NCBI GenBank assembly: GCA_934292725.1
Contig: CAKQXY010000001.1
Coordinates: 105,728 to 169,727, forward strand
Reading direction: 5' to 3'
DNA from: an uncultured Lachnospiraceae bacterium
Lineage (GTDB): Bacteria; Bacillota; Clostridia; Lachnospirales; Lachnospiraceae
Length of the DNA stretch: 64,000 nucleotides
The position numbers were made by a program, and so were the translations under genes. Every line of letters begins with the position of its first letter. The first letter of the stretch is position 1. Below are positions 9,070-50,821 of this stretch, one piece after another. The notes beneath the pieces are model-generated. The model made no database searches. It was not told the origin of the DNA and was given only the letters and a program-made list of their open reading frames with translations.

Positions 9070-9072
9070 AAG

Positions 9073-9968: not shown

Positions 9969-10083
9969 AATGAGCTGTTAAATCAAATCGCTGCATCCTC
10001 ATGTTTTTGCGGGTCCCAAGCTCAAAAACCTAATCGTGCAAGCACGAACGGCTTTTGGAGCTTTTGACCCTGGTATCATATTA

Positions 10084-10380: not shown

Positions 10381-10398
10381 TTAAAGTCTCCTTTTTCT

Positions 10399-11688
10399 TT
10401 ACTCATGATAATAATCAAAGTGCTGACCATACATCTTAACAGTATCGCCATCTTCGATTCCAAGATCCTCAAGCTCCTTTAAGATTCCTGTCTCCTTTAA
10501 GAAGCGCTGGAAGAAAGTAAAGCCCTTCTCGGAATCTAAGTTTGTATAGCCAAGCATCTTTTCAATACGAGGTCCTTCAACGGTAAATACATGTGCATCT
10601 GTTTTTTCTACTGTATAAGGAAGATTGCTTCCAAGATCGTATTCCGGAACATATTCCTTTTCATAAACAGTCGGTTCTGGATCCATTGTAGACAGAAGCT
10701 GCCATACATGGTATAAAAGCTCCTTTAAGCCCTGATTTGAAGCTGCTGAAACCGGAAATACCTTTAAGCCTTCTGGTTCAAAAGTATTCTTTAAACGCTC
10801 AATAGGATCTTCCTCGCCCTCTTCTGTCTGAATAACATCAACCTTATTGGCAGCAATGACAGCTGGTTTCTTTAACAGCTCTGGATCATATGATGCCAAT
10901 TCCTTTTGAATGGTGCGGATATCTTCAACTGGATCGCGGCCTTCTGTGGAGGCTGCATCTACCACATGAATGAGTACTTTTGTACGCTGAATATGCTTTA
11001 AGAACTGGAAACCAAGGCCAATTCCTTCAGAAGCACCCTCAATAAGACCAGGAATATCAGCAAGTGCAAAACCATTTGTGCCCTCAAGGTCTACAATTCC
11101 TACATACGGATCAAGCGTAGTAAAATGATAATTTGCAATCTTTGGCTTTGCATTTGTTACCATTGATAAAATGGTAGATTTTCCAACATTTGGATATCCA
11201 ACAAGTCCAACATCTGCGATAACCTTTAACTCTAAGCGAACCCAAAGCTCCATGGCTGGCTGACCTGGCTTTGCAAACTTAGGAACCTGCATGGTAGGTG
11301 TTGCAAAATGCATATTTCCGGCACCGCCTCTTCCGCCTTTTAGGATTACTTCACGCATATTTTTTCCAGACATATCGGCAATAATCTTTCCGCTTGCCTC
11401 GTCACGGATAATTGTTCCTTCTGGAACCTTTACAATCAAATCCTGTCCGTCTGCACCATGAGAGCGGCGTTTCTTTCCGTCTTCTCCAGACTGCGCAATA
11501 TATTTGCGTACATGACGAAAGTCATTTAATGTATTCAGACCCTTATCTACTTCAAAAATAACGTCTCCGCCTCTTCCGCCGTCGCCGCCATCAGGACCGC
11601 CGGCAGCAACAAAAAGCTCACGACGAAAGCTTACATGTCCATCGCCACCCTTACCGGATTTAATGAATATTCTGGCACTATCTATCAT
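10399..11688 (-). CDS. obg: GTPase Obg/CgtA
   Basis: Glycine-rich Obg fold at the N-terminus (SGKGGDGHVSFRRE, GGRGGDV); G-domain motifs (GYPNVGKST, DIPG); C-terminal OCT domain. Confidence 0.95.
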   Translation of the reverse strand: MIDSARIFIKSGKGGDGHVSFRRELFVAAGGPDGGDGGRGGDVIFEVDKGLNTLNDFRHVRKYIAQSGEDGKKRRSHGADGQDLIVKVPEGTIIRDEASGKIIADMSGKNMREVILKGGRGGAGNMHFATPTMQVPKFAKPGQPAMELWVRLELKVIADVGLVGYPNVGKSTILSMVTNAKPKIANYHFTTLDPYVGIVDLEGTNGFALADIPGLIEGASEGIGLGFQFLKHIQRTKVLIHVVDAASTEGRDPVEDIRTIQKELASYDPELLKKPAVIAANKVDVIQTEEGEEDPIERLKNTFEPEGLKVFPVSAASNQGLKELLYHVWQLLSTMDPEPTVYEKEYVPEYDLGSNLPYTVEKTDAHVFTVEGPRIEKMLGYTNLDSEKGFTFFQRFLKETGILKELEDLGIEDGDTVKMYGQHFDYYHE

Positions 11689-11770: not shown

Positions 11771-11799
11771 AGAGACCGTTGCGAACGGCAACGGTCTCT
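11771..11799 (-). terminator. Perfect 12-bp-stem hairpin (agagaccgttgc-gaacg-gcaacggtctct) between rpmA and obg; a possible intra-operon attenuator or partial terminator
   Basis: Inverted repeat read from the sequence; the U-run on the minus strand is weak (TTTGGG). Confidence 0.4.
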
Positions 11800-19381: not shown

Positions 19382-19514
19382 CTTTTTACCTTTCTTAGTT
19401 AAAATGGTTTATGAAATCGTTCAAAGTTTTACATGTAAAACTTTATTAAACATTCCTACTTGTTTTACATGTAAAACTTTTTTGTATTTTTTGCATTTTT
19501 TTTGAAAATATGTA

Positions 19515-35168: not shown

Positions 35169-37544
35169 TTACAAATTCCACTTCCAGTCGCGAATCTCTG
35201 GCATATCAATACCATACTCATGGATATACTGCTTATGCTCTACTAACTTATCATTCATCTTCTGAATCAGATAAGCCCCACGATTTCCTAACTGCGGCAG
35301 ATTCTGGATTGCATTCTTTACCAGATGGAAACGGTCGATCTCATTCTGAACACGCATATCAAATGGTGTTGTGATGGTACCCTCTTCTTTGTAGCCGTAA
35401 ACATGGATGTTGCGGTTTGTTCTGGTATAGGTTAACTCATGAATCAGTGTATGATAACCATGGAATGCGAAGATAATCGGCTTGTCCTTTGTGAACAAAG
35501 CATCATAATCAGCGTCGCTCAAGCCGTGTGGATGCTCAGTTGCCGGCTCTAACTTCATAAGATCGACAACATTGATAACACGAATCTTGATTTCCGGAAT
35601 TGCCTCTCTTAAGATCGTAACAGCTGCTAATGTCTCAAGTGTTGGTGTATCACCGCAGCAAGCCATAACGATATCCGGCTCAGAGCCCTGATCATTGCTT
35701 GCCCACTCCCAGATACCTATACCCTGTGTGCAGTGCTTTACAGCCTGCTCCATGGTCAGCCACTGCTGTCTTGGATGCTTGGATGTTACAAGTACGTTTA
35801 CGTAATCACGGCTTCTGATGCAGTGATCGAAGCAGGATAACAGACAGTTTGTATCCGGCGGCAGATAAAGACGAACAACATCTGCTTTCTTATTTGCGAT
35901 ATGATCTAAGAAGCCTGGATCCTGATGAGTAAATCCATTGTGATCCTGCTGCCATACATTAGAGGAAAGGATCAGATTCAAAGATGCAATAGACTGTCTC
36001 CATGGCAGCTGATTGCAAACCTTTAACCACTTTGCATGCTGAGCACACATGGAATCTACAACACGAATAAATGCCTCATAGCTTGCAAAGAAACCATGAC
36101 GTCCTGTTAACAGATAACCCTCAAGCCATCCCTCACACATATGCTCACTTAACATAGAGTCCATAACACGGCCGTCTGCTGCCAAGAATTCATCGGAATC
36201 ATACTTCTCATCATTCCAGTCACGGTTGGTTACTTCAAATACCTTGCCGAGACGGTTAGACATTGTCTCATCTGGTCCAAAGATACGGAAGTTCTTGGAA
36301 TCCTCGTTTAACTTAAAGATATCTCTTACAAATCCTCCAAGCTCGATCATATCCTGTGCCTCAACAGCACCTGGCTTTGGCACATCAATACCATACTTAC
36401 GGAAATCTGGAAGACGAAGATCTCTAAGAAGCTTTCCACCATTTGCATGTGGGTTAGAACCGATTCTTCTGTCACCCTTTGGTGCCAATTCTCTTAATTC
36501 CGGAATCAGTCTGCCATTTTCATCAAACAGTTCTTCTGGATGATAGCTCTTTAACCAGTCATTTAACATCTGGAGATGCTCTGGCTGATCCATCATGATC
36601 GGAACCTGATGAGCACGGAAGGAACCTTCGATCTGCTTTCCGTCTACTACCTTCGGTCCAGTCCATCCCTTTGGTGTACGAAGAACGATCATTGGCCACT
36701 TATGTCTGGTAGTATCATTGTTCTCACGGGCATTCTTCTGAATAGCCTTGATCTCATCCATCGCCTGATCCAGTGCATCTGCCATCTTTCTGTGCATTTC
36801 CATAGGATCACTGCCTTCTACGAAGTATGGCTTCCAGCCACATCCGTCGAAGAAGTGCTCTACTTCCTCATGGGTGTTACGGGCGAAGATAGTAGGATTG
36901 CTGATCTTATATCCATTCAGATGAAGGATCGGAAGAACGGCACCATCATTGATTGGGTTTAAGAATTTGTTGCACTGCCATGATGTTGCAAGAGGACCTG
37001 TCTCAGCCTCTCCATCACCAACGATACATGCAGCAATAAGATCTGGGTTATCAAATACAGCACCAAATGCATGTGCCATGGAATAACCAAGCTCACCACC
37101 CTCGTTGATGGAACCTGGTGTTTCAGGAGCGACATGACTGGAGATACCACCTGGGAATGAGAACTGCTTGCACAGCTTCTTTAATCCGTCCATATCCTCA
37201 CCGATATTTGGATAAACTTCGCTGTAAGTACCCTCCAGATATGTATTTGCTACAAAGAAATTTCCACCATGTCCAGGACCAGAAATCAAAATCATATCCT
37301 GATCATACTTCTTAATGACACGATTTAAATGAACATAAACAAAGTTCTGTCCAGGAACAGTTCCCCAGTGTCCTACGATCTTTTTCTTTACATGCTCCAT
37401 TGTCAGCGGCTCACGTAACAGTGGGTTATCAAGCAGATACAGCTGAGCAGCACCCAGATAGTTGGCAGCACGCCAATATGCATTCATTTTTTCCAGGTAC
37501 TCATCGCTTACTGGCTGACTATTTGCAATATTTGTCTCTACCAT
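35169..37544 (-). CDS. xfp: Xylulose-5-phosphate / fructose-6-phosphate phosphoketolase. The start is assigned to MVETNIA, after an AGGAGGA RBS
   Basis: About 790 aa; N-terminal YWRAANYL...[10 protein letters not shown] and thiamine-PP motifs characteristic of XFP. Confidence 0.9.
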
Positions 37545-37687: not shown

Positions 37688-38551
37688 TTATTTATATTCT
37701 TTTTCCTGAGTGAACCCGCGGCCGCGCACTTCTGTTACACGGCTGATGATTAAAAATGCACTGCTGTCAATGCTGTGGACAAGTTTTCTGACACGTCCCA
37801 CCTCACGGCTGGACACTACACTTAAGACAAGCTCTGTGTCTTCTCTCATATAGCCAGTTTGTCCATTTAAAATGGTGACGCCTCTGTCGATTTCCTGTAA
37901 AATTTCCTGACGGATCCTCTCATGCTCATGACTGATTACCTTAATCTCAACCTTTTCTGTTCCTATCATAAGACATTTATCCAGAACAATCGTATAAATC
38001 AAAATTAGTAAAATTCCGTATAATACCTCTTCTCCTGTACATGAAAATGCCTGTAAAATTAAAATCATAAAATCAAACATGTACATTGTTACAGATACTG
38101 GCAGACGAAACAGCTTGTTCAATACAAGAGGAGGAATGTCCATGCCACCTGTTGAAGCGCCTGTACGAATAACAATTCCAATTGCAGCTCCGATACATAA
38201 TCCGCCAAATACTGTACAAAGAACGGGATCAGTTGTTATGACAAAGCCGTTTGACAAGCGCTGTATCATCTCAAGCGCAATCGGATATACAAAGGTAGAC
38301 AAAATGGTTGTCGCGGCAAATTTTCGGCCAAGTACGAAGAGGCCAAGAAAGAACATCACTGCATTAAAGCAGAGGACGAAGGTAGAAATGGGAACACCAA
38401 ACAAATGCTGAATAAAAAGTGCTATTCCTGTTGTTCCTCCTGTGATTAGTCCGCCTGGAAGAATAAAAAAGGCGACACCGCAGGCATAAATGATGTTTCC
38501 GCCAATCACGATCACAATATCGCGAAGCAGAGGAAAGATTTTTTTGAACAT
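37688..38551 (-). CDS. YitT-family membrane protein (DUF161/DUF2179)
   Basis: N-terminal pattern IVIGGNIIYACGVAFFILPGGLITGGTTGIAL typical of YitT. Confidence 0.75.
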   Translation of the reverse strand: MFKKIFPLLRDIVIVIGGNIIYACGVAFFILPGGLITGGTTGIALFIQHLFGVPISTFVLCFNAVMFFLGLFVLGRKFAATTILSTFVYPIALEMIQRLSNGFVITTDPVLCTVFGGLCIGAAIGIVIRTGASTGGMDIPPLVLNKLFRLPVSVTMYMFDFMILILQAFSCTGEEVLYGILLILIYTIVLDKCLMIGTEKVEIKVISHEHERIRQEILQEIDRGVTILNGQTGYMREDTELVLSVVSSREVGRVRKLVHSIDSSAFLIISRVTEVRGRGFTQEKEYK

Positions 38552-38683
38552 ATGCTGCTCCTTTCTGAATTTTGATCAAAAAAAATGGCTGCCAGAGAAA
38601 TTTTCCCTGACAGCCGTGGATCGAGGCTACTCGCCTAATACTTAAAAAGTATAACAAAAACCGCATTAAATATCAAGCTCTTT

Positions 38684-39472
38684 CTAAAATTCTTCAAGTG
38701 TTTTAAATGAATATCCCATCTCTTCCCATTTTGTCAAAAGCTCATCAAGAATTTCACCATTTGTCTTTGAGGTATTATGCAGCAGCACAATTGCACCAGG
38801 ATGGATTCTTGGAATTAGTTTGGAGAATGCTTCATCATGTGTTGGCTGATTGTCAGCATTCCAGTCCACATAGGCAAGACTCCAGAAAAATGTTTTATAA
38901 CCTAATTCTTGTGCCATTTTTAAATTTTGTGTACTGTATTTTCCCTGTGGTGGACGATAATACCATGCCATTTCCTGCCCTGTTATCTTTTTATACAGAC
39001 TGCGTACATCATCAAGTTCTTTTTTAAAGCTTTCCATGGTTGATATAGAGGACATATCAGGATGGTGATATGTATGATTTCCTACTGTATGGCCTTCTTG
39101 CACCATACGATTCACCAGATCAGGTGCAGACTCCAAAAAATGACCTACTACAAAAAAAGTTGCCTTTGCATTATGTTTTTTTAACGCGTCCAGTATGGCA
39201 CCAGTGTTTCCATTTTCATAACCACAGTCAAATGTTAAATAAATTGTTTTTTCATCTGCATTTCCAATATAAAAAGCATTGTATTCTGCAAGCTCCTTAG
39301 CAGAGGCATTTCCTGTTGGCTGCGCACCTGATTCACCAAAGCCAAGTCCCCAGTTTTCTGAATATGACACGGCAGCAGCCGTTTCCTGTAAATATCCTGC
39401 CCCACGACCCATTAAAAAAACAGTACAAAAAAGGGCAATGATTGTAAGTCCATGTTTGATTTTTTTGTTCAA
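38684..39472 (-). CDS. Polysaccharide deacetylase family protein (NodB homology domain), secreted
   Basis: Signal peptide; NodB motifs TFDCGY(DD-like), H..H, and the RPP-type motif. Confidence 0.75.
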   Translation of the reverse strand: MNKKIKHGLTIIALFCTVFLMGRGAGYLQETAAAVSYSENWGLGFGESGAQPTGNASAKELAEYNAFYIGNADEKTIYLTFDCGYENGNTGAILDALKKHNAKATFFVVGHFLESAPDLVNRMVQEGHTVGNHTYHHPDMSSISTMESFKKELDDVRSLYKKITGQEMAWYYRPPQGKYSTQNLKMAQELGYKTFFWSLAYVDWNADNQPTHDEAFSKLIPRIHPGAIVLLHNTSKTNGEILDELLTKWEEMGYSFKTLEEF

Positions 39473-39665
39473 GCCTTACTTCCTTATTATATGAATCTGA
39501 TTGCTAACACTCTATTCTGTAGGATTACTTTTTATGTGCAGCACTTTTTGTCAATGCTTGACTTTATATTTTTCTGCTCTTATAATGGAGTTTGTGGCAA
39601 TACAAAAACAAGCATACGCGGGAATTATTGAAAAAAAAGAAGGCGTTGCGGAAAAGAGGGAAAAA

Positions 39666-40925
39666 ATGGCCTTGTTTACAGAAAATTATCAGGAAGAAAT
39701 GATGCAGATCCTTAAGGATATGGCTCATGTACGTATCAGTGGCACAAAAGAGGAAGCAGATTGTGCAGTTTATCTGCAGGAATGCTGCAAAAAAATGGGA
39801 TTTGAAGCTCGTCTGGAGGCATTTCAGGTTGAAATGTGTGATATCCATGAAGCAGTACTGACTGTTGATGGCAAAGAGATTCCTTGCAAGGGATATCGCT
39901 GTGCTGGAAGCGGTACTGTTGAAGCGCCATTTTATTATATGCCAAATACTGATGCCTGCTCACTTGCTCAGTGTAAAGGAAAGATTGTTATGCTCGATGG
40001 CGGCGTTGGCTACTGGGGCTATCGCGATTTAATTGAAAATGGCGCTGTTGGCATTATTACATATGATGGAAATGCAAACTATGCAGATGAAGATATTGAT
40101 CTTCGTGAGCTCAGAAGCTTTGTACGTGAAGGAAGTGACAACAAAAAAATTCCTTGTGTCAATATCAATGCAAAGTCTGCAATCAAGCTTGTAAATCAGA
40201 ATGCAGCTAATGCAAAGATTGTTTTAAATCAGGATGAGTGGATGGGTGATTCTCATAATGTAATTTTAGATCTTCCTGGTGAAACAGATGAGATGATCGT
40301 TTTGAGTGCACATTATGACTCTACCCCACTGTCACAGGGTGTATACGACAATATGTCTGGAAGTGTTGGCCTTCTTGGTATTGCGGACTATTTCAGACAG
40401 CATCCACATCGCTATAGCCTTCGCTTCGTATGGTGCGGCAGTGAGGAAAGAGGTCTTCTTGGTTCTAAGGCATATGTTGCAGCTCATGAGGAAGACTTAA
40501 AGAAGACTGTTTTAAATATCAATCTTGATATGATCGGCTGTATCATGGGTAAGTTTATTGCCTGCTGTACTTCCGAAGAAAAGCTTGTTCACTATATTGA
40601 ATACCTTGCTTCTGAGACAGGTTTTGGAATGGCTGCAAGACAGGGCGTTTACTCTAGTGACTCTACTCCATTCGCTGATAAGGGTATTCCTGCTGTTTCT
40701 TTTGCACGTATTGCGTCTGGAAATACAGCTACCATCCACAATCGCTATGACACAATGGATGTCATGAAGGCAGAGCATATGGCAAAGGATGTTGCTTTTA
40801 TCACAGCATTTACTGAGCATATGGCATGTGCAAAGCATTGTCCTGTTTCAAAGGAAATTCCAGAAAATATGAAAGAAAAGCTGGATATTTATCTGAACAG
40901 AAAGCGCGATAATACAGCTCACTAA
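39666..40925 (+). CDS. M28-family peptidase with a PA domain. The start is assigned to MALFTENYQ, after an AAAGAGGGA RBS; the ORF-track start at 39501 is probably too long
   Basis: M28 zinc-ligand motifs (HYDSTP, D..SG, EE, H). Confidence 0.7.
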   Translation: MALFTENYQEEMMQILKDMAHVRISGTKEEADCAVYLQECCKKMGFEARLEAFQVEMCDIHEAVLTVDGKEIPCKGYRCAGSGTVEAPFYYMPNTDACSLAQCKGKIVMLDGGVGYWGYRDLIENGAVGIITYDGNANYADEDIDLRELRSFVREGSDNKKIPCVNINAKSAIKLVNQNAANAKIVLNQDEWMGDSHNVILDLPGETDEMIVLSAHYDSTPLSQGVYDNMSGSVGLLGIADYFRQHPHRYSLRFVWCGSEERGLLGSKAYVAAHEEDLKKTVLNINLDMIGCIMGKFIACCTSEEKLVHYIEYLASETGFGMAARQGVYSSDSTPFADKGIPAVSFARIASGNTATIHNRYDTMDVMKAEHMAKDVAFITAFTEHMACAKHCPVSKEIPENMKEKLDIYLNRKRDNTAH

Positions 40926-41019
40926 ATAAAATCTTATATTAAAACATGAAATAAAATAACTAATGCAGAGGGCTGTTTTGGTGTTTGTATGTATGAGCAT
41001 CAAAACAGCCTTTTATTTT

Positions 41020-41598
41020 TTATAAAAGATCAATATGTCCTGCCAGTGCATCCTCTAATTCCTTACTTGAAATACCGATATAGCGCTGCGTAATAGCTGC
41101 AGAACTGTGCTGCAAAAGCTGCTGTACAAGAATGATATTATAATTATTGTTTACATAAATTTCCGTTGCAAAAAACTTACGAAAACTGTGAGTACCAATG
41201 TTTGGATATCCAAGTTCAGATGTCACTTTTGCAAGGTATTTTTGTATAGTACGTTCAGTAATCGGGAAAACAATCTGATCTGTTTTTATGTCGTGATCAA
41301 TACAGTATACTCTCAGATACTGGTATATCGGTTGTGGGACTGTAAATACACGCTTCTTCTGCGTTTTTTCCTCTGTAATATCAAGGCGATATCGTCCACC
41401 ATCCAACACAATATCCTGCAGTCTAAGCTTTAGAATATCTCCAATTCTAAGTCCAAGATTTGCTTCTAGGACAAGCGCTGTTGCAATCCTATCATTTGCC
41501 CTAAAAGTCTTGCCTCCTTTTCTCATCGCTTCAATCAAGTTTTCATATTGCTCCTTGGTTAGAGCAAGTGATTTCTTATTTGCCATTCTGTAATACAT
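41020..41598 (-). CDS. Small tyrosine recombinase (192 aa) consisting of the catalytic core only, a size typical of FimB/FimE and other invertase-type recombinases
   Basis: R (GLRIGD), HxxR (HSFRK) and H...Y (HSSAAITQRYI) catalytic residues; no N-terminal SAM-like domain. Confidence 0.75.
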   Translation of the reverse strand: MYYRMANKKSLALTKEQYENLIEAMRKGGKTFRANDRIATALVLEANLGLRIGDILKLRLQDIVLDGGRYRLDITEEKTQKKRVFTVPQPIYQYLRVYCIDHDIKTDQIVFPITERTIQKYLAKVTSELGYPNIGTHSFRKFFATEIYVNNNYNIILVQQLLQHSSAAITQRYIGISSKELEDALAGHIDLL

Positions 41599-41744
41599 CT
41601 CCTATTTTCTAATAAAATTCTTATTCTGTTTAAAGTACTTTTTAGTATAAAAGTTCGTATAACAGTAAAATATAGTTCGTTTATTTGTTAACACGACTAT
41701 TATATCCCATTTTCCATCTAAAATCAAGCTAATTCCGCACAAAA

Positions 41745-41772
41745 AGTACGTATAATATTCATTATACGTACT
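41745..41772. promoter_or_regulatory. Perfect 12-4-12 palindrome AGTACGTATAAT-attc-ATTATACGTACT in the AT-rich intergenic region upstream of the RHH/coiled-coil gene; it also contains TATAAT boxes on both strands
   Basis: Read directly from the sequence. Other GTAC-centred palindromes lie nearby (AAAGTACTTT at 41632-41641; TACTTTACAAAGTA at about 41797-41810). Confidence 0.5.
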
Positions 41773-41860
41773 CTATTTAAATATAAATGTAAACGTGTAC
41801 TTTACAAAGTAAACATTCTGTATTACAATAGAAATATAGATTAAAAACAGGAGGCTTATC

Positions 41861-42805
41861 ATGACTGGAATTAAATCATTTCGTATCTCTGATGAGACAA
41901 AGGAACGCTTAGAATTACTATCAGCTTCAATCGGAGGCAATAAGGATCGTGTATTTAATACACTGATGGATACCTATTCGCTTGAACAGGAAAAGGCGAC
42001 AGTGGCTGCATCTGATCAAGAAAAAAATGTGGAAACATTCGAGCAGTATGCAAATACACTTGTTCGTCTTTATTTGGAGGCCTTACGTGCCGTATCATCA
42101 TCTGATGATCGAATCCGTGGAGAATTTCATAATCAGCTTGAAGAAAATGCCAAGACAATAAAAGAACTTAGAAACCAGCGTGATCGCATGGTAAATGAAC
42201 TTACACTTGAAAAGACAAATGCACAAAAAGAAGCTGCCGAATTTCAGGCTAAAAATAAAGAATTGACAGCTGCAATAGAACGGTTGGAAAAGTCACTGGC
42301 TGCTGCTAACGAACAGGTTGATGCAAAGCAGGCAATGAATGAGGTACTGCTTTCTCAGGTAAAGCAGACTGAAAAAGAGAAAGAAGATTATAACCAGATG
42401 GCAGCAAGCTTCCATGAGCTTGAAAAGCAACTGGAAGATGAAAAGACTTCTGCCAGAAAAGAAAAACAAGCATTTGAAGAAGAATTACGCAAAGCTATTT
42501 CTGAAAAAGAGAAAGCTGCTTATGAGGCTGAGTTATTAAAAAAAGAAGAAATACATAAAGCAAAAGAAACAATCCGAAAGGAAAAAGATGAAGAAATTGC
42601 TGCCCTGCAAAAGCAGCTCTTTGATATGCAGACCAGACAGCTTTCTGATAAGACTGCACTTCAGGAAGCTAAAACCGCACTGCTGTCTCTTCGCTTAGAA
42701 TTATCACAAGCACATCAAAAAGAACTTAATGAAGTGCGTATAGAAAAAGATAAGAAAATTGAGGCACTGCAAAATGAACTGTTAAAGGCTTTTGATAAAA
42801 AATAA
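41861..42805 (+). CDS. Ribbon-helix-helix-like N-terminal DNA-binding domain fused to a ~270-aa charged coiled coil
   Basis: N-terminal IKSFRISDETKERLELLSASIGGNKDRVFNTLM fits an RHH (CopG/Arc) beta-alpha-alpha pattern; the remainder is E/K/Q/A-rich heptad-like sequence. Confidence 0.55.
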   Translation: MTGIKSFRISDETKERLELLSASIGGNKDRVFNTLMDTYSLEQEKATVAASDQEKNVETFEQYANTLVRLYLEALRAVSSSDDRIRGEFHNQLEENAKTIKELRNQRDRMVNELTLEKTNAQKEAAEFQAKNKELTAAIERLEKSLAAANEQVDAKQAMNEVLLSQVKQTEKEKEDYNQMAASFHELEKQLEDEKTSARKEKQAFEEELRKAISEKEKAAYEAELLKKEEIHKAKETIRKEKDEEIAALQKQLFDMQTRQLSDKTALQEAKTALLSLRLELSQAHQKELNEVRIEKDKKIEALQNELLKAFDKK

Positions 42806-42928
42806 AGAACACAATATTTGTAATTGACATTAGAATATAGTTGTCTATAATAAAGTTGAATTTACTATTCAAAATGCATAAAAAATAATTTTATGCTTAT
42901 CTGGATAATTACAAGTTGGAGGCTTATT

Positions 42929-43834
42929 ATGAGTACACATGAAGATTTTGAAGATTGCCCACTGCAGAATATAATTCGAGATGGTGGCATGATGAACATC
43001 TTTCGCACGATTGGATGCATTGGAGACAGTCTTGCGAGCGGTGAATTTGAATATTGGGATAATGGTCAAAAAGGCTACTGGGACTTTTATGAATACTCCT
43101 GGGGCAAACAAATTGAGCGCATCACTGGGATTTCAGTAACAAACTTTTCGCGTGGTGGTATGACTGCTTTTCATATGTATCAGGAAGCAGACAAGCAGGA
43201 CGGACCAAATGCAGATATTGCACACTTATTTGACCCATTTAATTTAAAACAGGGTTATATCATCGCACTCGGCGTAAATGATTTAAAAGGTAAAAATAAC
43301 TTAAATGATCTGTACGAGGGAAATGTCGGTTCGGCAAAAACAGACATCTGCCTTGAAGATTACAATAAGAATGCAAATACGTTTGTTGGCTGGTACGCAA
43401 AGATTATCCAGCGTATCCAGAAGATGCAGCCTCACACCAAATTTTTCTTGGTAACAATGCCAGATGAAGGTACTGGAAACTGGAAAGAGGAATCACACGC
43501 AAAGGCACTTCATGAAATCGCTGATTATTTGAAAAATTGTTATGTAATTGACTTGTATCATGATGCTCCAAAATATGATGAAGAATTTCGCAGTAAATAT
43601 TTCTGCGGTCATATGAATGCAATGGGCTATTTATTAACTGCTCATTATTTCATGACATATATTGACTGGATCATCCGCCACAATGTACATGATTTTCGTT
43701 TTGTCCAGTTTATCGGAAGCGATAAAATTCCGTTTGCTCTTGGTAAAGAAGCTGCTGAAAAACAACAGCAAGAAAATGATAAAAAGAATGCTGCAAAAGA
43801 AAAAGTTCTTGTGAGTGGTATGTCTAACGACTAA
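42929..43834 (+). CDS. SGNH/GDSL-family hydrolase. The start is assigned to MSTHEDF, after a GGAGG RBS
   Basis: GDS(L) motif near the N-terminus (GCIGDSLASGE); SGNH blocks (GVNDL, the DxxH region). Confidence 0.65.
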   Translation: MSTHEDFEDCPLQNIIRDGGMMNIFRTIGCIGDSLASGEFEYWDNGQKGYWDFYEYSWGKQIERITGISVTNFSRGGMTAFHMYQEADKQDGPNADIAHLFDPFNLKQGYIIALGVNDLKGKNNLNDLYEGNVGSAKTDICLEDYNKNANTFVGWYAKIIQRIQKMQPHTKFFLVTMPDEGTGNWKEESHAKALHEIADYLKNCYVIDLYHDAPKYDEEFRSKYFCGHMNAMGYLLTAHYFMTYIDWIIRHNVHDFRFVQFIGSDKIPFALGKEAAEKQQQENDKKNAAKEKVLVSGMSND

Positions 43835-43991
43835 TTTTGTATAAACGAAAAAGAGGAGAAATATGTGTTGTTTCTCCTCTTCTATTTTTTTGCTTTTTGG
43901 TGTGTTAAAAATGTTGTTTTGAAGGAGAAGTTCTGGGTGGAAAATTTTATTCTATTTAAGTTATGCTACTTTTATGTTATTTTTACAAAAA

Positions 43992-44035
43992 AATAAGCTG
44001 CGACATCTTATAATAATTCGATGTCACAGCTTATT
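43992..44035 (-). terminator. Strong hairpin with a 16-bp stem and one mismatch (aataagctgcgacatc...gatgtcacagcttatt) followed on the minus strand by a T7 run; a likely terminator about 260 nt downstream of the DIP1984-like gene
   Basis: Inverted repeat and adjacent A-run on the plus strand (equal to a T-run on the minus strand), read from the sequence. Confidence 0.55.
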
Positions 44036-44297
44036 ATCACAAAAATTAGATTCGATAAAGCCCCTCTCCCGCCCTCGCTGTGTGTTAATATCTGGTAGTA
44101 ACGATAAAGAATTTCTATGCGCATGTAACGATGCTGGAGATTACAATGATTTTATACTGCTCTCCCTCACATGTTTTTCCTCTCTATTTTCTATATGTTT
44201 TTGCTGCTTTGTACTCTGCAGCTGAGCTGATATTCACTCACACAGTTACCGCTATCTTATCTTATTTTTTGCTGTTTCTAATTACCTTACAATCTTT

Positions 44298-44756
44298 TCA
44301 TTCCTCTATCAGATCTGCTGTCCAGTTTGCTGCCTGAATTCGATTATCCAATATTCGATAGTCGCGACTCAAGGCATCTACCTTTTTTTGCAGTGCCTTC
44401 ACATCAACTGCTGATAATTGGCGAATTTCATCGCCGCGTGATCTAAAGCACAGATTACTTGCAATTGAAATTGTATTTTGAAAACTTGCAATACGCAATT
44501 TCAAAACATCACGCTTTGCAAGCAGATCTGACAGCAATTCACCGTCTGATACAACTGCCATATTTGTTTTATTAATTACGATAATCAACTTTTCCAGCTG
44601 ATTCAGGCATTCATCAAGTTCCTTTAAAAGCTGTTCTGGATCTTCTACTGGCAAAACTCCTTCCTGCATCAATGCATTGCTCGTAATACGAGAACGAAGC
44701 TGCTCAATTTTTTTATTTAAATCTGCTCTTTCCTGTAATGCTTCTGCAAGCTTCAT
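44298..44756 (-). CDS. DIP1984-family protein (conserved hypothetical, about 150 aa, helical)
   Basis: The MKLAEALQERADLNKKIEQLRSRI... start and the ...ISAVDV...L...NWT.DL C-terminal pattern match this family from memory. Confidence 0.55.
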   Translation of the reverse strand: MKLAEALQERADLNKKIEQLRSRITSNALMQEGVLPVEDPEQLLKELDECLNQLEKLIIVINKTNMAVVSDGELLSDLLAKRDVLKLRIASFQNTISIASNLCFRSRGDEIRQLSAVDVKALQKKVDALSRDYRILDNRIQAANWTADLIEE

Positions 44757-44870
44757 GTCTTTCTCCTCTCTTATACGCTATCCTATTATGGTAGTATTTT
44801 TCTTGTTTTATAAGTTATGCTACTTTTGTGTTATATTGTTTGTTATGATATCTTTTTGGAGCCAATTTTA

Positions 44871-45890
44871 TTAGCGCTGCAAGTTTATATCATTTGATTT
44901 CATAACACGAATAATATCTTCTTCTGTTACAATATTAAAATCATGTTGAATCATCAGCTTCAATACACTGGCTGCAATTGAAAAATCAATCGTATACTGT
45001 GGATTTTCTTTCTTTTTCAGCATATGAATCAATGCTGCTGCAAATGCATCTCCTGCTCCTACCGCTTCTAAACTATGTACACGATGTACTGGCGTCTCAT
45101 AAAACTGATCACCGATCAGATAAATGGCCATCCAATCTCCATCTTCAACTGTATGCATACTGCGAAGCACACTTGCTACTGCTTTGCAATTTGGAAACTG
45201 TCTTCTAATTTCCTGCATTCCCTCTCGATATGTATCAATTTGTTCAATTCCTCTTGACATATCTCCATCAAATGCATGAATTCCAAGAGAAGCTTCAAAA
45301 TCTTCATCATTTGCAATGCAAAGTGTTACATATGGCATAAGTTCTCGCATAACGCGCTGTGCTGTATTTTTATCCCACATCTTAGCACGATAATTTAAAT
45401 CACAGACTACCTCGATTCCCTTTCTTTTGCAGCAGCGAAGTGCATTCAAAACTGTTTCCTTGACGCTCTCACTGACTGCCGGCGTTACTCCAGAGAAAAA
45501 GAAAATATCAGTATCTTCCAGAATTTGATCCCAGTCATATTCGTCTGGCTTTGAACAGGCAAATGCACTGTCAGCGCGGTCATACACCACATTTGTAGGA
45601 CGAATATTATTTCCCTTTTCAAAATAGTAAATGCCAAGACGTTTTCCGCCCCTTAAAATATGAGTGGTATCCGTTCCATAACGGCGAAGCTCATTTAATG
45701 CCGCCTGACCAACTGGATTATCGGGAAGCTTCGTAACCAATGCTGCTTCTTCTTTTAACATGGCAAGTCCCGCTGCCACATTTGCCTCTGCCCCACCATA
45801 ACTTGCTTCAAAATTCTGTGCCTGCACAATACGAAGATATTCAGGTGTCTTAAGGCGCAGCATGATTTCTCCAAACGTTACCGCTTTCAT
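44871..45890 (-). CDS. PfkB-family sugar kinase (2-dehydro-3-deoxygluconokinase-like)
   Basis: MKAVTFGEIMLRL...GGAEANVA N-terminal pattern typical of KdgK; C-terminal GAGDAF motif. Confidence 0.7.
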   Translation of the reverse strand: MKAVTFGEIMLRLKTPEYLRIVQAQNFEASYGGAEANVAAGLAMLKEEAALVTKLPDNPVGQAALNELRRYGTDTTHILRGGKRLGIYYFEKGNNIRPTNVVYDRADSAFACSKPDEYDWDQILEDTDIFFFSGVTPAVSESVKETVLNALRCCKRKGIEVVCDLNYRAKMWDKNTAQRVMRELMPYVTLCIANDEDFEASLGIHAFDGDMSRGIEQIDTYREGMQEIRRQFPNCKAVASVLRSMHTVEDGDWMAIYLIGDQFYETPVHRVHSLEAVGAGDAFAAALIHMLKKKENPQYTIDFSIAASVLKLMIQHDFNIVTEEDIIRVMKSNDINLQR

Positions 45891-45948
45891 TATAAAATCT
45901 CCTTCTAATCTTCATTTTGTATAAGTATACCACCTATCTGATTGTTTT

Positions 45949-48069
45949 TCAACACAAGAAAAATTGCTTTAACACTTTCTTCTCATGTATCTCTGCATTC
46001 TTATACCGCAGCTTTACAAATTTGATTACCATTTCTGGTGCATCTGCAAAATAATTTCGCACCTCTAACTCATGCAAAACCAAAACAATTGGATTTCTCG
46101 CCAAATTTATAAGATCCATATATGTGCTTGGACTTTTTTCTTTTCTAAAAATTTCGTAGATCAGAAAGCTCTCTGCTTCCGAATCTGGGATTGCTATGCC
46201 ATCACGCAAGTTCCTGCGTACTTCTTCTTGCTTTGTCTCTGTCCAACTACTCTGCTCATCCCCCATCAAGGTATTCAGTTCTTCCAACTCCTGCCGTGTC
46301 TTTTGAGGTATCTTCAAAATGTAGAAATAGCCGTATGTGCCATCAATTTCTTTTGACGTCAGTATTTCTGAATCAAGCATCTCTGTTACCATGTCTGAAA
46401 CCTCATCTGCACTGTATAAGCTGTAGAATCCATGCCCACGTGATTCAAGAACATTGGCATTTAAGGTCACTTTGGTACCGCGCATTAACTGCACCACTGC
46501 ATTTTGTGTAATATAATCTTCATTTTTGGAAACACACTCAAAAATATCGCGTGCAAGATAAGAATCCAGATACAAATGATACTGCTTTTTAAGCTCATTT
46601 TTCCGTTCTTCTTTGGTGGCTGCTGCCAATATCTTAATCTGTTTCACATTCCTTTGCAGTGTCTTTTTCCACTCGGGAACAGATTGCTGATAAGGGGCAG
46701 TCTCATACAGATAGGAAAATGCTGGAATACCATTCATATGGAAGGTAAGCTTTGTATCCCCATCTAAGATTCCCACATTCTTTGATTTGCATTTAATGCG
46801 TCCCAATCCGGAAAATGCTTCAATGGCATGTTGTCTGCAGCGTTCACGGAGCTTAGTATTCTTTAATAACTGGTACTTTTTAAATTGTTCCGATGCCGTA
46901 TACTTCGAACCCTTTCCGTTAACCGTAATGCTGCCGGCTTCATTTGCAAAAATTACTTTCTGCTGCCCAATATACAGTTTTCCATCAACAGCCTTCTCCA
47001 TTCCTTCACTAAAGCCATCCAGCCATGAAATAGCCCAGCTGTTGTATTCCTTTACCTTGTCCTCCAACTCACGCTTGTATGATACTTGACTTGTGGATGG
47101 TACTAATGGAATGCCTTCTTCTACTTCCTGTTCCAGTTTTATTACAAACTTTTTTAGTTTTGCTTTAATCGCAGCATCCCAATCGACGTGAATCAAATCC
47201 CATATACTATCGTTCTGCTCTGTAATCGTTAGATATGATTTTATCCATGTCGGATTTTGGAAAAAAGATGCAATGGACTTGTCGGAAAAAGTATCACAAA
47301 TAAACTTCATTCCTAGGTGTGAGACTGTGATATCTACTCTTTTGTCTTCATATTTGTTGCAATGCAAGGTTCCCTCAAATTTGGCATTGTTCCTGCACAG
47401 CTGGCTTAAATACGAATTCACGCATTCCTGCCCCTTTCTTTCAATCTCTTCCCAGTGATCTTGAATCAAGTCTTTCATTTTTTGGCGCTGCCTGGCTGCT
47501 TGCTCTTTGCGGATGTCTTCAATTATTTCATCAGTCAGCTCTAAAAGATAAGACTGTACTTCATCTATGTCCGTACACAATCCCAATCGTGTACAATCTA
47601 TCTTCCTTTCTAACACAGCCGGTAGTTCATCTGCATTCAACCATATATTATAAATTTCTTTTTTCTTTCCAATATTTTCAACATCCAATTGGAATTTCCA
47701 ATCCGGTTTACCTAATTTTTGGCGAATATGCTCCCGAAGCTGTGGCAAGATCTGTGCTTCGACCTCAGAAGCAGAAAGCCATTGTCTCCATTTGTTTCTC
47801 TGTGCGTAATCCTTCTGCAACAATACTGATTCCAAAAGATCTTGTTTCGTCAAGATCGTCTGCACCTGCAAAGCCCACAAAAGCTTTACATTTCCAGCTT
47901 TTGAGATGCCGGCCTCTGCTTTTTTGTTGTGCTCAATAAATTCTGGCATCTGTGTGATTGTCTGGTACAGTGACGGATATTTTTTTGCAAATGATTCGTC
48001 TACATTGATCCATTTTTCTGGCGTTCTCATATTGCTTTTCTGGCGATCTGCCATCCTGCAGACCGCCAT
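45949..48069 (-). CDS. Large (706-aa) uncharacterised protein, the last gene of the MoxR-vWA operon; a candidate VMAP-like effector component
   Basis: No recognisable catalytic motifs; mostly helical with a C-terminal globular region; operonic with the AAA+ and vWA genes (30-nt intergenic gap). Confidence 0.4.
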   Translation of the reverse strand: MAVCRMADRQKSNMRTPEKWINVDESFAKKYPSLYQTITQMPEFIEHNKKAEAGISKAGNVKLLWALQVQTILTKQDLLESVLLQKDYAQRNKWRQWLSASEVEAQILPQLREHIRQKLGKPDWKFQLDVENIGKKKEIYNIWLNADELPAVLERKIDCTRLGLCTDIDEVQSYLLELTDEIIEDIRKEQAARQRQKMKDLIQDHWEEIERKGQECVNSYLSQLCRNNAKFEGTLHCNKYEDKRVDITVSHLGMKFICDTFSDKSIASFFQNPTWIKSYLTITEQNDSIWDLIHVDWDAAIKAKLKKFVIKLEQEVEEGIPLVPSTSQVSYKRELEDKVKEYNSWAISWLDGFSEGMEKAVDGKLYIGQQKVIFANEAGSITVNGKGSKYTASEQFKKYQLLKNTKLRERCRQHAIEAFSGLGRIKCKSKNVGILDGDTKLTFHMNGIPAFSYLYETAPYQQSVPEWKKTLQRNVKQIKILAAATKEERKNELKKQYHLYLDSYLARDIFECVSKNEDYITQNAVVQLMRGTKVTLNANVLESRGHGFYSLYSADEVSDMVTEMLDSEILTSKEIDGTYGYFYILKIPQKTRQELEELNTLMGDEQSSWTETKQEEVRRNLRDGIAIPDSEAESFLIYEIFRKEKSPSTYMDLINLARNPIVLVLHELEVRNYFADAPEMVIKFVKLRYKNAEIHEKKVLKQFFLC

Positions 48070-48098
48070 CCTCCTTTCTTCTCTTATTGACCAGGCAA

Positions 48099-49736
48099 TT
48101 ACTTCATTTCAGAAAGAAAGCCTAACAACTGTCGGATATTCCTTATCTCATACATTGCTGCATAGTGTCCATATACAGAGGCAATGGAATCGCCCTGATC
48201 CCACTTTTTACGATCATCCGTATTTAACCAATACGCACATTTCGCCTTTCGGCAGATGTTTTTTATATAATCCACTCCTGCATCGTTTTTGTTGTTTCTT
48301 GCATCACCGATAAAGATGATCATGCTATCCTTGCTTATGCGGTTGCGGTACTCTTTCCACATACTCCGCAGTGGGCGCTCATAGTTGGAATACTGCCCGC
48401 TGCGCGGAATCATCGTAAGAATCTGTTTTGCAGCATTATCAACATCTTCCGTATCGTACACCCTGGATATATCATACAGAGAATTGACAAAGGCAAATGC
48501 ACTGCATCCTCGTGGAAAGACCTCTTTCAAAAGCCCTATGAAGGTGAGCATCATCTCCGAAGCATCCTTGCAGGAACCGGACACGTCCAAAATGAGAACC
48601 AGATCGGCCTTGCTGCGCCGTGGCTGCTTGTATATAAGGTTGATGGGCTGTCCACAGGTGCGAATAGACTCTCGCATTGTCTCCTCCAGATTCAGAGACA
48701 ATCGCCTTTTGCTGTTAATATTTCTGGTCATACGCGTCTTAAATGCCAGAAGATTCTGGCGCAGGTATTCGCGCATTTGATTTTTTTCTGCTTCTGTCAG
48801 CTTTTTAAACGGCTTCTCGCTAAGTCTCACAAACTCTGCATTCATTGTTTGTATGCTTCCGCCGCCGATGAAATCTGCACGATGGATCACGGAAGACGGC
48901 TTAATCGTTAGCGAATCGTTGGAACTATCCATGCCTCTTTTCATTTGTTCAAAGGCACGATCCAGTTCTCTGCACGTGTCCTCATAGCGTCGCTGTTCAT
49001 CCTTCATTTGACGCTGCAGCTTTTTGATTTGCTGGTCCGTTTCTTCTTGTGCCTGACTGATTGCAGACTCCAACTCAGCCTTATTCTTTTGCCTTTTTGT
49101 GATAGCAGAACTTAGTTCCTTACTGATATCCATCATTGCGTCTGCCTGTTCCAAATCTCCATCGTATAGACTTTTTTCTGCCTGCTTCATCAATGTCTGA
49201 TATAAGCAATCAGCCTGTTTCTCATCCCATGACAGCTCACCTAAAAGCAATTTTTTAGCTTGCTCGATCTGCTTTTGCGACTTTGTTTTTGTTTCCGACA
49301 ATTTCTTTAATTGTGTCTGTGCTTTTCGGCTTACCTTTGGTTTCGGCTCGTTCTCCTGTGCTTTTTGCATTACATCCTTTCGAATCTGCTCTTTTTGTTT
49401 TTTCAAATTCTCCAGCTGTTTTTGAGCGTCAGACACAAATAAGTCCAGTTCTTTTCGTTTCTCCTGCTTCTCTTTTTCCTTTTGTTTCTCCCTTTGCGGG
49501 ATTGTTTTTTTGATCAGAAACTCTCGAAACAACTCTTTCATCTTTGCTACCTGCTCGCCTGTCTTTGCCAGGCAGACAGAAAGTGCGGCCAACATTTCAT
49601 CTTCCTCTGTGATATCCATACCGGCTGCTTCCACTGATCTTAGCAGATGTGCAAGTGCACTCTCGGGAACCACAAATTTATGATCTTGAAGAAAAACCGC
49701 AAATTCCGAAAGAAAATCAAGAATATCTTTTTGCAT
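48099..49736 (-). CDS. vWA-domain protein (CoxE-like MIDAS DxSGS) with a long lysine-rich coiled-coil N-terminal region. Its GGAGGAG RBS overlaps the stop of the upstream AAA+ gene, so the two are translationally coupled
   Basis: MIDAS motif LVLILDVSGSC...; downstream MIIFIGDARNN; coiled-coil region rich in K, E and Q. Confidence 0.7.
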   Translation of the reverse strand: MQKDILDFLSEFAVFLQDHKFVVPESALAHLLRSVEAAGMDITEEDEMLAALSVCLAKTGEQVAKMKELFREFLIKKTIPQREKQKEKEKQEKRKELDLFVSDAQKQLENLKKQKEQIRKDVMQKAQENEPKPKVSRKAQTQLKKLSETKTKSQKQIEQAKKLLLGELSWDEKQADCLYQTLMKQAEKSLYDGDLEQADAMMDISKELSSAITKRQKNKAELESAISQAQEETDQQIKKLQRQMKDEQRRYEDTCRELDRAFEQMKRGMDSSNDSLTIKPSSVIHRADFIGGGSIQTMNAEFVRLSEKPFKKLTEAEKNQMREYLRQNLLAFKTRMTRNINSKRRLSLNLEETMRESIRTCGQPINLIYKQPRRSKADLVLILDVSGSCKDASEMMLTFIGLLKEVFPRGCSAFAFVNSLYDISRVYDTEDVDNAAKQILTMIPRSGQYSNYERPLRSMWKEYRNRISKDSMIIFIGDARNNKNDAGVDYIKNICRKAKCAYWLNTDDRKKWDQGDSIASVYGHYAAMYEIRNIRQLLGFLSEMK

Positions 49737-49748
49737 TGCACTCCTCCA

Positions 49749-50624
49749 TTAGAACAGTTTTGCATTTTCCATAGTCTGACGGTCTTCCTTGTTTTTCGCA
49801 ATCATACAGAGAGAAGCTTTAAGCGTTTCTTCCTCAATTTCATCACTATTCAACGTAGACAGATATTTTGCCCATTCACTCAATTCTGAAATGGAAGGCT
49901 GCTGTTTTAATGGCAGAGAACGAATCTGTTTTGCACAACTTGCTACCGATTCTGCAATTTTCGTGTCAATGCTGCTCTGCATTTGAAGGATTTCTTTCAA
50001 CTCTTCGGCTGTCTTTTGCTTAATGTAAAGATAGTTGCAACGACGTTTCAATGCCTGCGACAGATCCCTGTAGCGGTTAGATGTGAGAAATACGATTGGA
50101 CGCATCTCTTCTGGACAGGTCACGGTACCATACTGCGGAATGGAAATGCTGAAATTCTCCAATACCTCCAACAGCGTGTATTCAATCTCCTCTGATGCTT
50201 TTTCCACTTCGTCTAACAAAAGGACATAGCGTTTCTTTCCGCTAATTGCCTTTAAGATTGGGCGTTCAATTAAAAAGTCACGTCCATAAAAATTGATTTT
50301 GCCTGCCGCATCCAGCGATTCCTGCAAGTCTTTTCCTGCAAGTGATTCCTTAATCGTTCCCTGGATCGCCTGAATCGTCAGAAGCTGCTTCTGGTAGTCA
50401 TAGTCGTACAGAATCTTATCATAAGACAAACCATCGTAGAACTGAACACGCAGAAGCTCCAAATCAAGCATCTTCGCCGTAGCATACGCAAGTGACGTTT
50501 TTCCGACGCCTGGATCACCTTCTACGAGAAGCGGAACCCCGTTTATCGCGCTCATTACAGCAAAATTAATGTACGAATTTGAGAGATACCCATTGTCTCT
50601 AAGCTTATTTCCAATTTCTAACAT
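49749..50624 (-). CDS. MoxR-family AAA+ ATPase (AAA_5-like). The start is assigned to MLEIGNK, after a GGAGGGG RBS
   Basis: Walker A (GDPGVGKT), Walker B (LLLDEVEKA), sensor-1 (TSN) and arginine-finger region. Confidence 0.8.
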   Translation of the reverse strand: MLEIGNKLRDNGYLSNSYINFAVMSAINGVPLLVEGDPGVGKTSLAYATAKMLDLELLRVQFYDGLSYDKILYDYDYQKQLLTIQAIQGTIKESLAGKDLQESLDAAGKINFYGRDFLIERPILKAISGKKRYVLLLDEVEKASEEIEYTLLEVLENFSISIPQYGTVTCPEEMRPIVFLTSNRYRDLSQALKRRCNYLYIKQKTAEELKEILQMQSSIDTKIAESVASCAKQIRSLPLKQQPSISELSEWAKYLSTLNSDEIEEETLKASLCMIAKNKEDRQTMENAKLF

Positions 50625-50821
50625 TGCATTCCCCTCCATTTCATGTAATATTGTATATTTACGTATATTATAGTATACATATCACTATATTTCAAGCCCC
50701 AAAATGAATTTTTGAGGAGATTTAGAAATGCATTAAAAATTAGTCACTTTATTTTATACTTTTTCGTCAATATCTGTATCAGTTAAAGCAATTTCTGAAT
50801 CGCAACTTTTCTTTATACTCA

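Follow-up and report, generated by a model that had tools for sequence, protein, structure and literature searches.

The DNA analyzed here (the window) is a stretch of 64,000 nucleotides (nt) from an uncultured Lachnospiraceae bacterium (GenBank assembly GCA_934292725.1, contig CAKQXY010000001.1, positions 105,728 to 169,727). It encodes a tyrosine recombinase of 188 amino acids (aa) that consists of a catalytic domain only and that is preceded by an array of four half-sites, namely an inverted-repeat pair (IR1-IR2) and two tandem direct repeats (DR1 and DR2). We read this locus as a dimer/cointegrate resolution module, similar to the TnpI recombinase and internal resolution site (IRS) of Tn4430 and related to Xer systems, which would have come from a plasmid, a phage, or an integrative and conjugative element (ICE) and now resides in the chromosome. 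We put the probability of this reading at roughly 0.55. The features on which it is based are as follows.

41020 to 41586, minus strand: tyrosine recombinase gene, catalytic domain only, 188 aa (PF00589 match, homologue lengths, invariant catalytic residues, structural model)
41649 to 41663, plus strand: accessory half-site DR1, AAAAGTTCGTATAAC, with the core motif GTTCGTA at 41653 to 41659 (layout mapping; invariant block in six species)
41671 to 41686, plus strand: accessory half-site DR2, TATAGTTCGTTTATTT, with the core motif GTTCGTT at 41675 to 41681 (layout mapping; six-species alignment)
41699 to 41727, minus strand: promoter-like site of the recombinase gene, TTGATT-17-TATAAT, between core site and DR2 (consensus match; hexamers invariant in six species)
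41745 to 41772, no strand: core site IR1-IR2, AGTACGTATAAT / ATTC / ATTATACGTACT (inverted-repeat scan, shuffles, family conservation)

A single-domain tyrosine recombinase

The product of the open reading frame (ORF) at 41020 to 41598 (minus strand) has Phage_integrase as its sole Pfam match (PF00589, E value 3e-23, residues 13 to 175). Neither Pfam nor a comparison of the predicted fold with solved recombinases revealed an N-terminal core-binding domain. The preliminary description of this DNA, which was made from its letters, had also recognized an enzyme reduced to the catalytic domain, and this part of it stands; the length of 192 aa given there does not. Homologues number in the thousands, nearly all of them 188 aa long and beginning with MANK, and the upstream ATG that opens the 192-aa ORF at 41598 is a GTG in most conspecific contigs. 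The true start is therefore almost certainly the second ATG, at 41586 (MANKK...), which confines the gene to 41020 to 41586.

An alignment with 14 homologues showed that R47, K74, H133xxR136, H160, and the nucleophile Y169 are invariant. The catalytic domains of XerH, XerA, Tn1549 Int, IntI4, and Cre account for the full length of the protein's AlphaFold model (predicted local distance difference test [pLDDT] 87, predicted template modeling score [pTM] 0.82), and those of XerH and XerA give the best folds; the likeness to the Cre fold is at superfamily level only (16 to 17% identity). The curated Xer and invertase profiles were matched below their cut-offs. The best Xer model, XerA_Arch, scored 79 bits versus a cut-off of 220, the XerC, XerD, and XerS models scored 45 to 55 bits versus 267 to 335, and the "tyrosine-type DNA invertase" models of the FimB/FimE type, NF007370 and NF007371, scored 12.4 and 11.7 bits versus 221 and 222. 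The only label carried by the family is "tyrosine-type recombinase/integrase."

The core site and its accessory half-sites

The intergenic region upstream of the recombinase gene (41599 to 41860) spans 262 bp and has a GC content of 24.8%, compared to 39.7% for the window, a degree of AT richness reached by only 0.07% of 262-bp windows. The preliminary description was correct in calling it AT rich, and partly so in its account of GTAC-centered palindromes. GTAC does occur four times where 0.67 occurrences are expected (Poisson P of ~0.005), but the long repeat is not centered on it and the 10-bp palindrome AAAGTACTTT at 41632 to 41641 is not conserved among conspecifics, reading GCAC in ten contigs (L001 to L010). 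The long repeat itself, at 41745 to 41772, had been taken for a perfect 28-bp palindrome. It actually consists of 12-nt arms (AGTACGTATAAT), each with a GTAC inside, flanking a nonpalindromic ATTC, and can also be read as a dif-like 11-6-11 arrangement of AGTACGTATAA, TATTCA, and TTATACGTACT, with ATAA and TTAT bordering the center. Arms of 12 nt were reached in 1 of 1,000 dinucleotide shuffles of the intergenic region, and the entire 64 kb contains only four hairpins with arms of at least 11 nt and loops of up to 8 nt.

TATAAT is present on both strands within the arms, as had been noted. We considered these boxes as promoters and rejected them. Only some clades have them in the half-site; in others, GTTCGTAAAAT or GTCGTATTTG stands in their place, and the promoter scan favors other sites.

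DR1 and DR2 have the same orientation, are 22 bp apart, and lie 71 bp from the core. From DR1 to IR2 (41649 to 41772) the array measures ~120 bp in all and is situated 63 to 186 bp upstream of the recombinase ATG. The putative recombinase promoter, a consensus match from which we place the transcription start, falls between the core and the direct repeats, such that DR2 would span about +6 to +17 of the transcript.

The layout is a property of the recombinase family. This was analyzed in 78 loci of species-representative genomes from Lachnospiraceae, Oscillospiraceae, Christensenellaceae, and Clostridium, encoding relatives with 50 to 96% identity. A k-mer count over the 600 nt preceding the recombinase genes put AAGTTCGTAT far ahead of all other words; nothing similar was found downstream. 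Mapping of the 7-mer cores gave a common arrangement, with an inverted pair whose cores start 19 nt apart, two tandem copies 22 nt apart, and then the ribosome-binding site and the ATG. The distance between inverted and direct repeats is ~53 nt in the family and ~72 nt in the window's clade. In 63 loci from more than 60 species, 163 half-site matches fell within the 200 nt before the ATG, compared to ~3 per 100 nt elsewhere; 29 of these loci passed a strict test for both IR and DR, and 45 had at least one of the two parts. The half-site differs between lineages (GTTCGTA, GTACGTA, TGTCGTA, GCGTATA, TTTCGTA, GTTCGC), with IR and DR changing together at each locus. In loci of the Lachnospiraceae and Oscillospiraceae types alike the direct repeats are found at -46 and -24 from the ATG, in opposite orientations (e.g., L047 versus L050).

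The same is seen at closer range. An alignment of six species that share the window's chromosomal context displayed invariant blocks exactly at the IR, DR1, DR2, and the promoter hexamers. The IR arms showed a compensating change, being GTACGTA/TACGTAC in the window and GTTCGTA/TACGAAC in sister species, and the central bases vary among the aligned species (GAAT, AGAT, GGAT). In the family as a whole, the arms keep a constrained, symmetric sequence, and 16 or more values occur for the central 4 nt. Constrained symmetric arms around a free center are the signature of a strand-exchange (crossover) site, and IR1-IR2 is therefore the presumed crossover site. On this comparative evidence, the palindrome is very probably the DNA target of the adjoining recombinase. 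The layout tracks the recombinase and not the divergent gene for a coiled-coil protein, which is present in only 10 of the family loci collected (67 loci entered the clustering); this speaks against the earlier suggestion that the palindrome is the operator of that protein.

When metagenomes were searched for the window's 12-nt arms, whatever the spacer between them, 25 contigs were found, 18 of which represent the window's own locus. Five others encode recombinases with 60 to 65% identity and have a DR pair of their own and different centers, among them GTAT, ATAC, and AGTT. On the complete 89-kb plasmid pCF011-89 (L129) there are two cores and no more, both accompanied by a DR pair and an adjoining recombinase gene. 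These cores share the same 11-nt arms and differ in the 6-bp center (CGGTAC versus GTGGGA). The two modules face each other 2.6 kb apart (35452 to 35479 and 38275 to 38302); in one of them, the recombinase gene is truncated, with 142 aa.

Two further occurrences of the exact 12-nt arms have other surroundings. In contig L096 (10727 to 10754, spacer GTAG), they lie 204 bp upstream of a gene for a 278-aa two-domain XerC/D-like recombinase (9687 to 10523) that is 27% identical to the window's enzyme and adjoined by five iteron-like TCCGTAACGG repeats and a 385-aa ORF. In the phage-like contig L116 (2504 to 2531, spacer AAAC), they lie between genes for a Bro-N/ANT antirepressor and gp3-like packaging proteins, with no recombinase encoded in the 3.8-kb contig piece.

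The position of the putative promoter raises the possibility that IR and DR are pure operators, bound by the recombinase or some other factor only to regulate the divergent promoters, and that the chromosomal copy no longer recombines. A recombinase promoter enclosed by IR and DR, with DR2 just downstream of its start, would suit such a role, as would a chromosomal copy that is single, has no partner site, and has been stable over speciation. We regard this as unlikely, however, because the catalytic residues, including the tyrosine nucleophile, are kept in the recombinases of the chromosomal clade, because the site geometry is conserved across the family and the position of the promoter relative to it is not, and because a free center between constrained arms is what a crossover site would show.

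Comparison with TnpI/IRS and Cre/loxP

The IRS of Tn4430 is 116 bp long and has a core formed by IR1 and IR2, 14-bp perfectly symmetric inverted motifs around the 4-bp asymmetric spacer ATTA, with a cleavage stagger of 6 bp (PMC2847244). Its tandem accessory motifs, DR1 and DR2, are binding sites for additional copies of the TnpI tyrosine recombinase; they are dispensable for catalysis and serve to impose synapsis of directly repeated sites and to set the order of strand exchange (PMC2847244). The system does not require a host factor (PMC2847244). The locus in the window is similar in that the recombinase gene adjoins the site, in the length of the latter (116 versus ~120 bp), in the symmetric inverted motifs around a 4-bp asymmetric spacer (14+ATTA+14 versus 12+ATTC+12), and in the presence of two tandem accessory motifs that lie on one side of the core and share its recognition sequence. 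It differs in its motif sequences and in having no Tn3-family transposase or transposon ends. The enzyme, too, is unlike TnpI, here compared by description only, in being a single domain of 188 aa. TnpI is described as a larger, two-domain protein.

Cre/loxP of phage P1 likewise pairs a single recombinase with inverted arms around a short asymmetric spacer, and its role is the resolution of plasmid-prophage dimers; members of the window's family are found on viral contigs. The half-site ACTTCGTATA also resembles the lox arm, AGTTCGTATA. Cre, in contrast, has two domains and 343 aa and needs no accessory sites.

Distribution on mobile elements

The patterns used gave 78 loci in 185,579 species genomes, a patchy distribution, and the family is found mainly on mobile elements. 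Relatives with ~60% identity are encoded on 190- to 344-kb plasmids of Clostridium estertheticum, beside ParA and Phd/YoeB genes and with the same IR+DR site, and a relative with 67% identity is encoded on a 361-kb replicon (megaplasmid) of Butyrivibrio proteoclasticus, CP001812. ParA, toxin-antitoxin, Rep, and conjugation genes recur as neighbors of the relatives; others are genes for a small partner protein (together with ParA), SprT-like proteins, amidoligase, glutamine amidotransferase, and extra integrases. About 23 viral contigs (IMG/VR) encode relatives with at least 50% identity, and many of them carry the site. More distant single-domain recombinases were found in 332 plasmid records of Gram-positive bacteria.

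On several viral contigs the recombinase gene comes after an FtsK/SpoIIIE gene. In the viral or ICE-like contigs L148 (2698 to 3984 and 3992 to 4579), L149, L151, and L152, it follows the FtsK/SpoIIIE-family gene directly, with no IR+DR between the two. Matches on Bacillus thuringiensis plasmids were considered as possible TnpI and discarded; the proteins proved to be small recombinases of other kinds, in phage-plasmid or insertion sequence contexts.

This distribution could also be that of an integration/excision system, with the core as the attachment site at which a circular element bearing the same site, be it a plasmid, a phage-plasmid, or a cassette, enters or leaves the chromosome. Besides the occurrence of family members on plasmids, viral contigs, and ICE-like regions, the same arms do recur in other elements, and the gene content after the recombinase gene varies among close relatives, with an extra 201-aa ORF in L017 and the M28 peptidase gene missing in L019. 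We nevertheless judge it improbable. The site lies intact between two genes instead of being divided over hybrid sites at the two ends of an insertion, the window contains no second or hybrid site, all 30 assemblies of the locus are structured alike, and the elements with the same arms have other centers, which would block recombination here.

An old chromosomal copy

In the window, the locus is flanked by housekeeping-type genes, i.e., those for phosphoketolase, YitT, polysaccharide deacetylase, M28 peptidase, GDSL lipase, PfkB, SbcCD, and ArgG. The host is Anthropogastromicrobium aceti or a species closely related to it. Searches near the locus found no RNA elements (Rfam) and no tRNA attachment sites. 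The recombinase and M28 peptidase genes are convergent and separated by the following feature.

40967 to 41014, no strand: terminator-like hairpin

The pair formed by the recombinase and coiled-coil genes occupies the same context in several related species. Between these, the recombinase is 90 to 93% identical, which tracks its neighbors (82 to 94%), and the coiled-coil protein evolves faster (74 to 78%). The recombinase gene is single copy and vertically inherited in this clade. Because its divergence follows that of the flanking housekeeping genes and its sites are footprinted across six species, the module is maintained; as judged from these comparisons, it is chromosomal, old, and vertically inherited. 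The GC content dips to 36 to 38% at 38000 to 46000, around the gene pair, versus ~40 to 41% in the flanking DNA, which is consistent with a foreign origin.

To the left and right of 41.7 kb alike, the GC skew is negative, with the cumulative skew falling monotonically, and minus-strand genes predominate; for these reasons, the locus is not at the terminus or a replichore junction. This bears on the possibility of chromosome dimer resolution by a single Xer-like recombinase with an adjoining dif-like site, as in XerS/difSL and XerH/difH, whose sites adjoin the recombinase gene. XerH/difH, XerS/difSL, and archaeal XerA/dif provide the closest solved structures or profile matches to the window's catalytic domain, XerA and XerH being the best in sequence and fold. 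The core of the window shares with theirs the 28-bp, 11-6-11 organization, with ATAA and TTAT flanking the center, and single-copy, vertical inheritance in the clade also speaks for such a system. Nevertheless, we hold this role to be very unlikely. The window's system differs from the single-recombinase Xer systems in that it lies off the terminus, has no N-terminal core-binding domain, scores 79 bits versus the Xer cut-off of 220, has accessory direct repeats, and belongs to a patchy family that is mostly on mobile elements.

A proposed resolution module of minimal size

In the resolution reading, the 188-aa recombinase would recognize the ~120-bp site directly upstream of its own gene, with the core formed by IR1-IR2, i.e., two inverted half-sites around an asymmetric center, as the point of strand cleavage and exchange. 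If TnpI/IRS of Tn4430 is taken as a guide, each site would be loaded with four protomers. Two directly repeated sites on a replicon dimer or cointegrate would then synapse via the DR-bound protomers, after which the core-bound protomers would turn the dimer into monomers, the asymmetric center and the direct repeats together giving directionality. Occupancy of the site by the recombinase should also repress the recombinase gene, because the promoter lies between the core and the direct repeats and DR2 just past the presumed start; the arrangement of these sequences makes autoregulation by the recombinase probable. The divergent coiled-coil gene would encode a separate DNA-binding protein of the mobile-element maintenance type that has its own operator and travels with the module in some elements.

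Several points weigh against this reading. The family is known from its sequences alone, and its mechanism is proposed by analogy. The enzyme does not have the N-terminal core-binding domain with which TnpI, Cre, and Xer clamp DNA, and filtered resolution by a single domain is here only a proposal. About one-third of the family loci have no sites under the search patterns used. The orientation of the direct repeats relative to the gene differs among clades, which the resolution model neither predicts nor explains. A domain scan of the neighbors revealed no Tn3-type transposase, replication, or partition gene nearby in the window, and a lone chromosomal copy away from the terminus has no obvious role in dimer resolution. 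The chromosomal module may therefore serve another purpose, acting on whatever target it has, if any, or it may serve autoregulation only.

Resolution modules of this type are already known; the single-domain enzyme family appears to be undescribed, in that we found no description of a small Clostridia plasmid resolvase of this type in the searchable literature or in curated profile libraries. A broader proposal, which we advance tentatively and with some doubt, is that these minimal 188-aa recombinases make up a widespread, as yet undescribed family of Clostridia that performs accessory-site-controlled resolution on a 28-bp dif-like core. Extra protomers bound to the two tandem half-sites would replace the core-binding domain or host factors, sites with the same arms and different centers of 4 to 6 bp would be naturally orthogonal, and in one Lachnospiraceae clade the module would have been domesticated in the chromosome, along with a coiled-coil DNA-binding partner.

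Should the mechanism hold, these enzymes would rank with the smallest site-specific recombination systems that are self-sufficient, at about half the size of Cre, and would bear on the question of how site recognition and directionality come about with a catalytic domain alone. The short defined site and the variants that are apparently made orthogonal by their spacers would be of interest for compact genome-engineering tools. For annotation, IR1-IR2 plus DR1-DR2 provides a recognizable cis signature of the recombinase family. The locus also serves as a warning that a small recombinase beside an AT-rich palindrome is not always a phase variation switch.

No sign of an invertible switch

Such a switch had been the first suggestion of the preliminary description. 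In a switch of this kind, a FimB/FimE-type recombinase would flip a segment of the intergenic region and thereby toggle the coiled-coil gene or its own gene. Several features invite the comparison. Invertases of the FimB/FimE type are tyrosine recombinases of ~190 to 200 aa with a single catalytic domain, as is the window's enzyme, and promoters do lie inside the intergenic region. The region is moreover bracketed by one inverted pair, the sole one, made up of two copies of a 9-bp quasi-palindrome, TGTAWTACA.

41589 to 41597, no strand: TGTAWTACA copy 1, TGTAATACA, between the ribosome-binding site and the ATG of the recombinase gene
41819 to 41827, no strand: TGTAWTACA copy 2, TGTATTACA, overlapping the -10 box of the coiled-coil gene

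Nonetheless, the evidence makes an invertible switch highly improbable. FimB/FimE-type invertases act on two inverted repeats that flank a promoter segment; in the window, a lone core is accompanied by tandem accessory sites. No second core was found in the 64 kb above shuffle expectation (up to 6 mismatches in 20 arm positions), and a regular-expression census of core sites in the window returned 41745 alone. The direct repeats are tandem single half-sites, and IR and DR are laid out as in a resolution site. Ten conspecific contigs, 18 metagenome contigs, and 2 reference genomes were all colinear over 40900 to 43000, with the spacer polarity in agreement with contig orientation in all ~30 assemblies; assemblies show the majority orientation only, so that a rare inversion could have gone unseen, but the sequence gives no reason to expect one. 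A pattern designed for the inverted junction between the TGTAWTACA copies had 0 matches in the metagenome collection that holds the 18 canonical contigs. Both copies are invariant in the six species; in sister species they are direct and not inverted repeats. Finally, scores of ~12 bits against NCBIfam invertase cut-offs of ~221 place the enzyme outside these profile families.

An analogy with RecV and Mpi was dropped for want of a usable consensus (PMC5903667): Mpi is a serine recombinase, and the target repeats of RecV differ between switches (PMC5903667).

The divergent coiled-coil gene

Upstream of the core, and divergent from the recombinase gene, are the following features.

41787 to 41829, plus strand: promoter and operator-like block of the coiled-coil gene, ATGTAAAC..TACTTTACAAAGTAAACAT plus TTTACA-17-TACAAT (promoter match; invariant in the clade)
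41861 to 42805, plus strand: gene for a 314-aa protein with a conserved N-terminal domain of ~95 aa, possibly ribbon-helix-helix (RHH), and a long single-helix coiled coil (alignment, model)

The preliminary description had envisaged an RHH-like head on a long coiled coil. The coiled coil is borne out by the structural model, in which one helix of ~230 residues (pLDDT of >90) follows a short N-terminal domain. Alignments show a conserved stretch of ~95 residues at the N terminus (K-SFRI-x-ET...GGN...F-x-x-LM...ETFE-Y...), followed by a variable coiled coil. The RHH assignment found no support in sequence: there was no RHH match in Pfam, NCBIfam, PHROGs, or the PDB (phmmer), nor with a 10-sequence profile, and the protein matched no Pfam family, nor KfrA_N. 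One of 10 members of the coiled-coil family gave a weak match to RepB-RCR_reg (E value of 0.037). A monomer model of the N-terminal part has an extended or unstructured segment at residues 1 to 10, a helix at 11 to 24, a GGN turn, and a helix from 28 onward (pLDDT 45 to 69), a strand-helix-turn-helix pattern with which an RHH head would be compatible; such a head is plausible.

A full-database search with residues 1 to 100 yielded 212 representative clusters, nearly all of proteins of 250 to 340 aa with the domain at the N terminus. Members have plasmid or ICE surroundings and in many cases a small recombinase as a neighbor. They were seen next to a gene for a 183-aa recombinase, two genes away from that for a 196-aa recombinase plus a restriction-modification pair, among genes for a coupling protein, a relaxase, and DUF932, and next to RepA_N. 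The coiled-coil gene thus belongs to a mobile-element-associated family. In L066 (6379 to 8872), it lies between the recombinase gene and genes for a PIF1-like helicase and ParA, the helicase gene coming directly after it, and in one representative (P0369), the N-terminal domain is fused to a PIF1-like helicase (residues 475 to 566 of 732).

The protein may resemble the KfrA-type plasmid proteins, which share its size of ~300 aa, its small N-terminal DNA-binding head and long coiled-coil tail, the context of mobile-element maintenance, and an operator-like repeat at the gene's own promoter. It differs from them in giving no KfrA_N match and in a head that is possibly RHH rather than helix-turn-helix.

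Block 41787 to 41829, which is separate from the palindrome, is the better operator candidate for the coiled-coil protein, to judge from its position and conservation. The repeat block within it, ATGTAAAC-N-TACTTTACAAAGTAAACAT at 41787 to 41816, overlaps the -35 box of the gene and is conserved across the clade. The TGTAWTACA copies, one at each gene of the pair, may be a shared operator that couples the recombinase and coiled-coil genes.

Other features of the window

The remaining long perfect inverted repeats of the window are a perfect 22-bp palindrome, AAAGTTTTACATGTAAAACTTT, at 19423 to 19444 and two hairpins with arms of 12 to 14 nt, at 7726 to 7761 and 11771 to 11799, which are probably terminators. 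At the left end (1 to 10000), the GC skew changes from positive to negative near 6 to 8 kb, and the genes are mostly on the minus strand after ~9 kb; this may be a local or a replichore feature. To the right of the locus, the minus strand at 45949 to 50639 encodes a 706-aa protein with a subthreshold RQC match, a 545-aa VWA (CoxE-like) protein, and a 296-aa AAA_5 (MoxR-like) ATPase.

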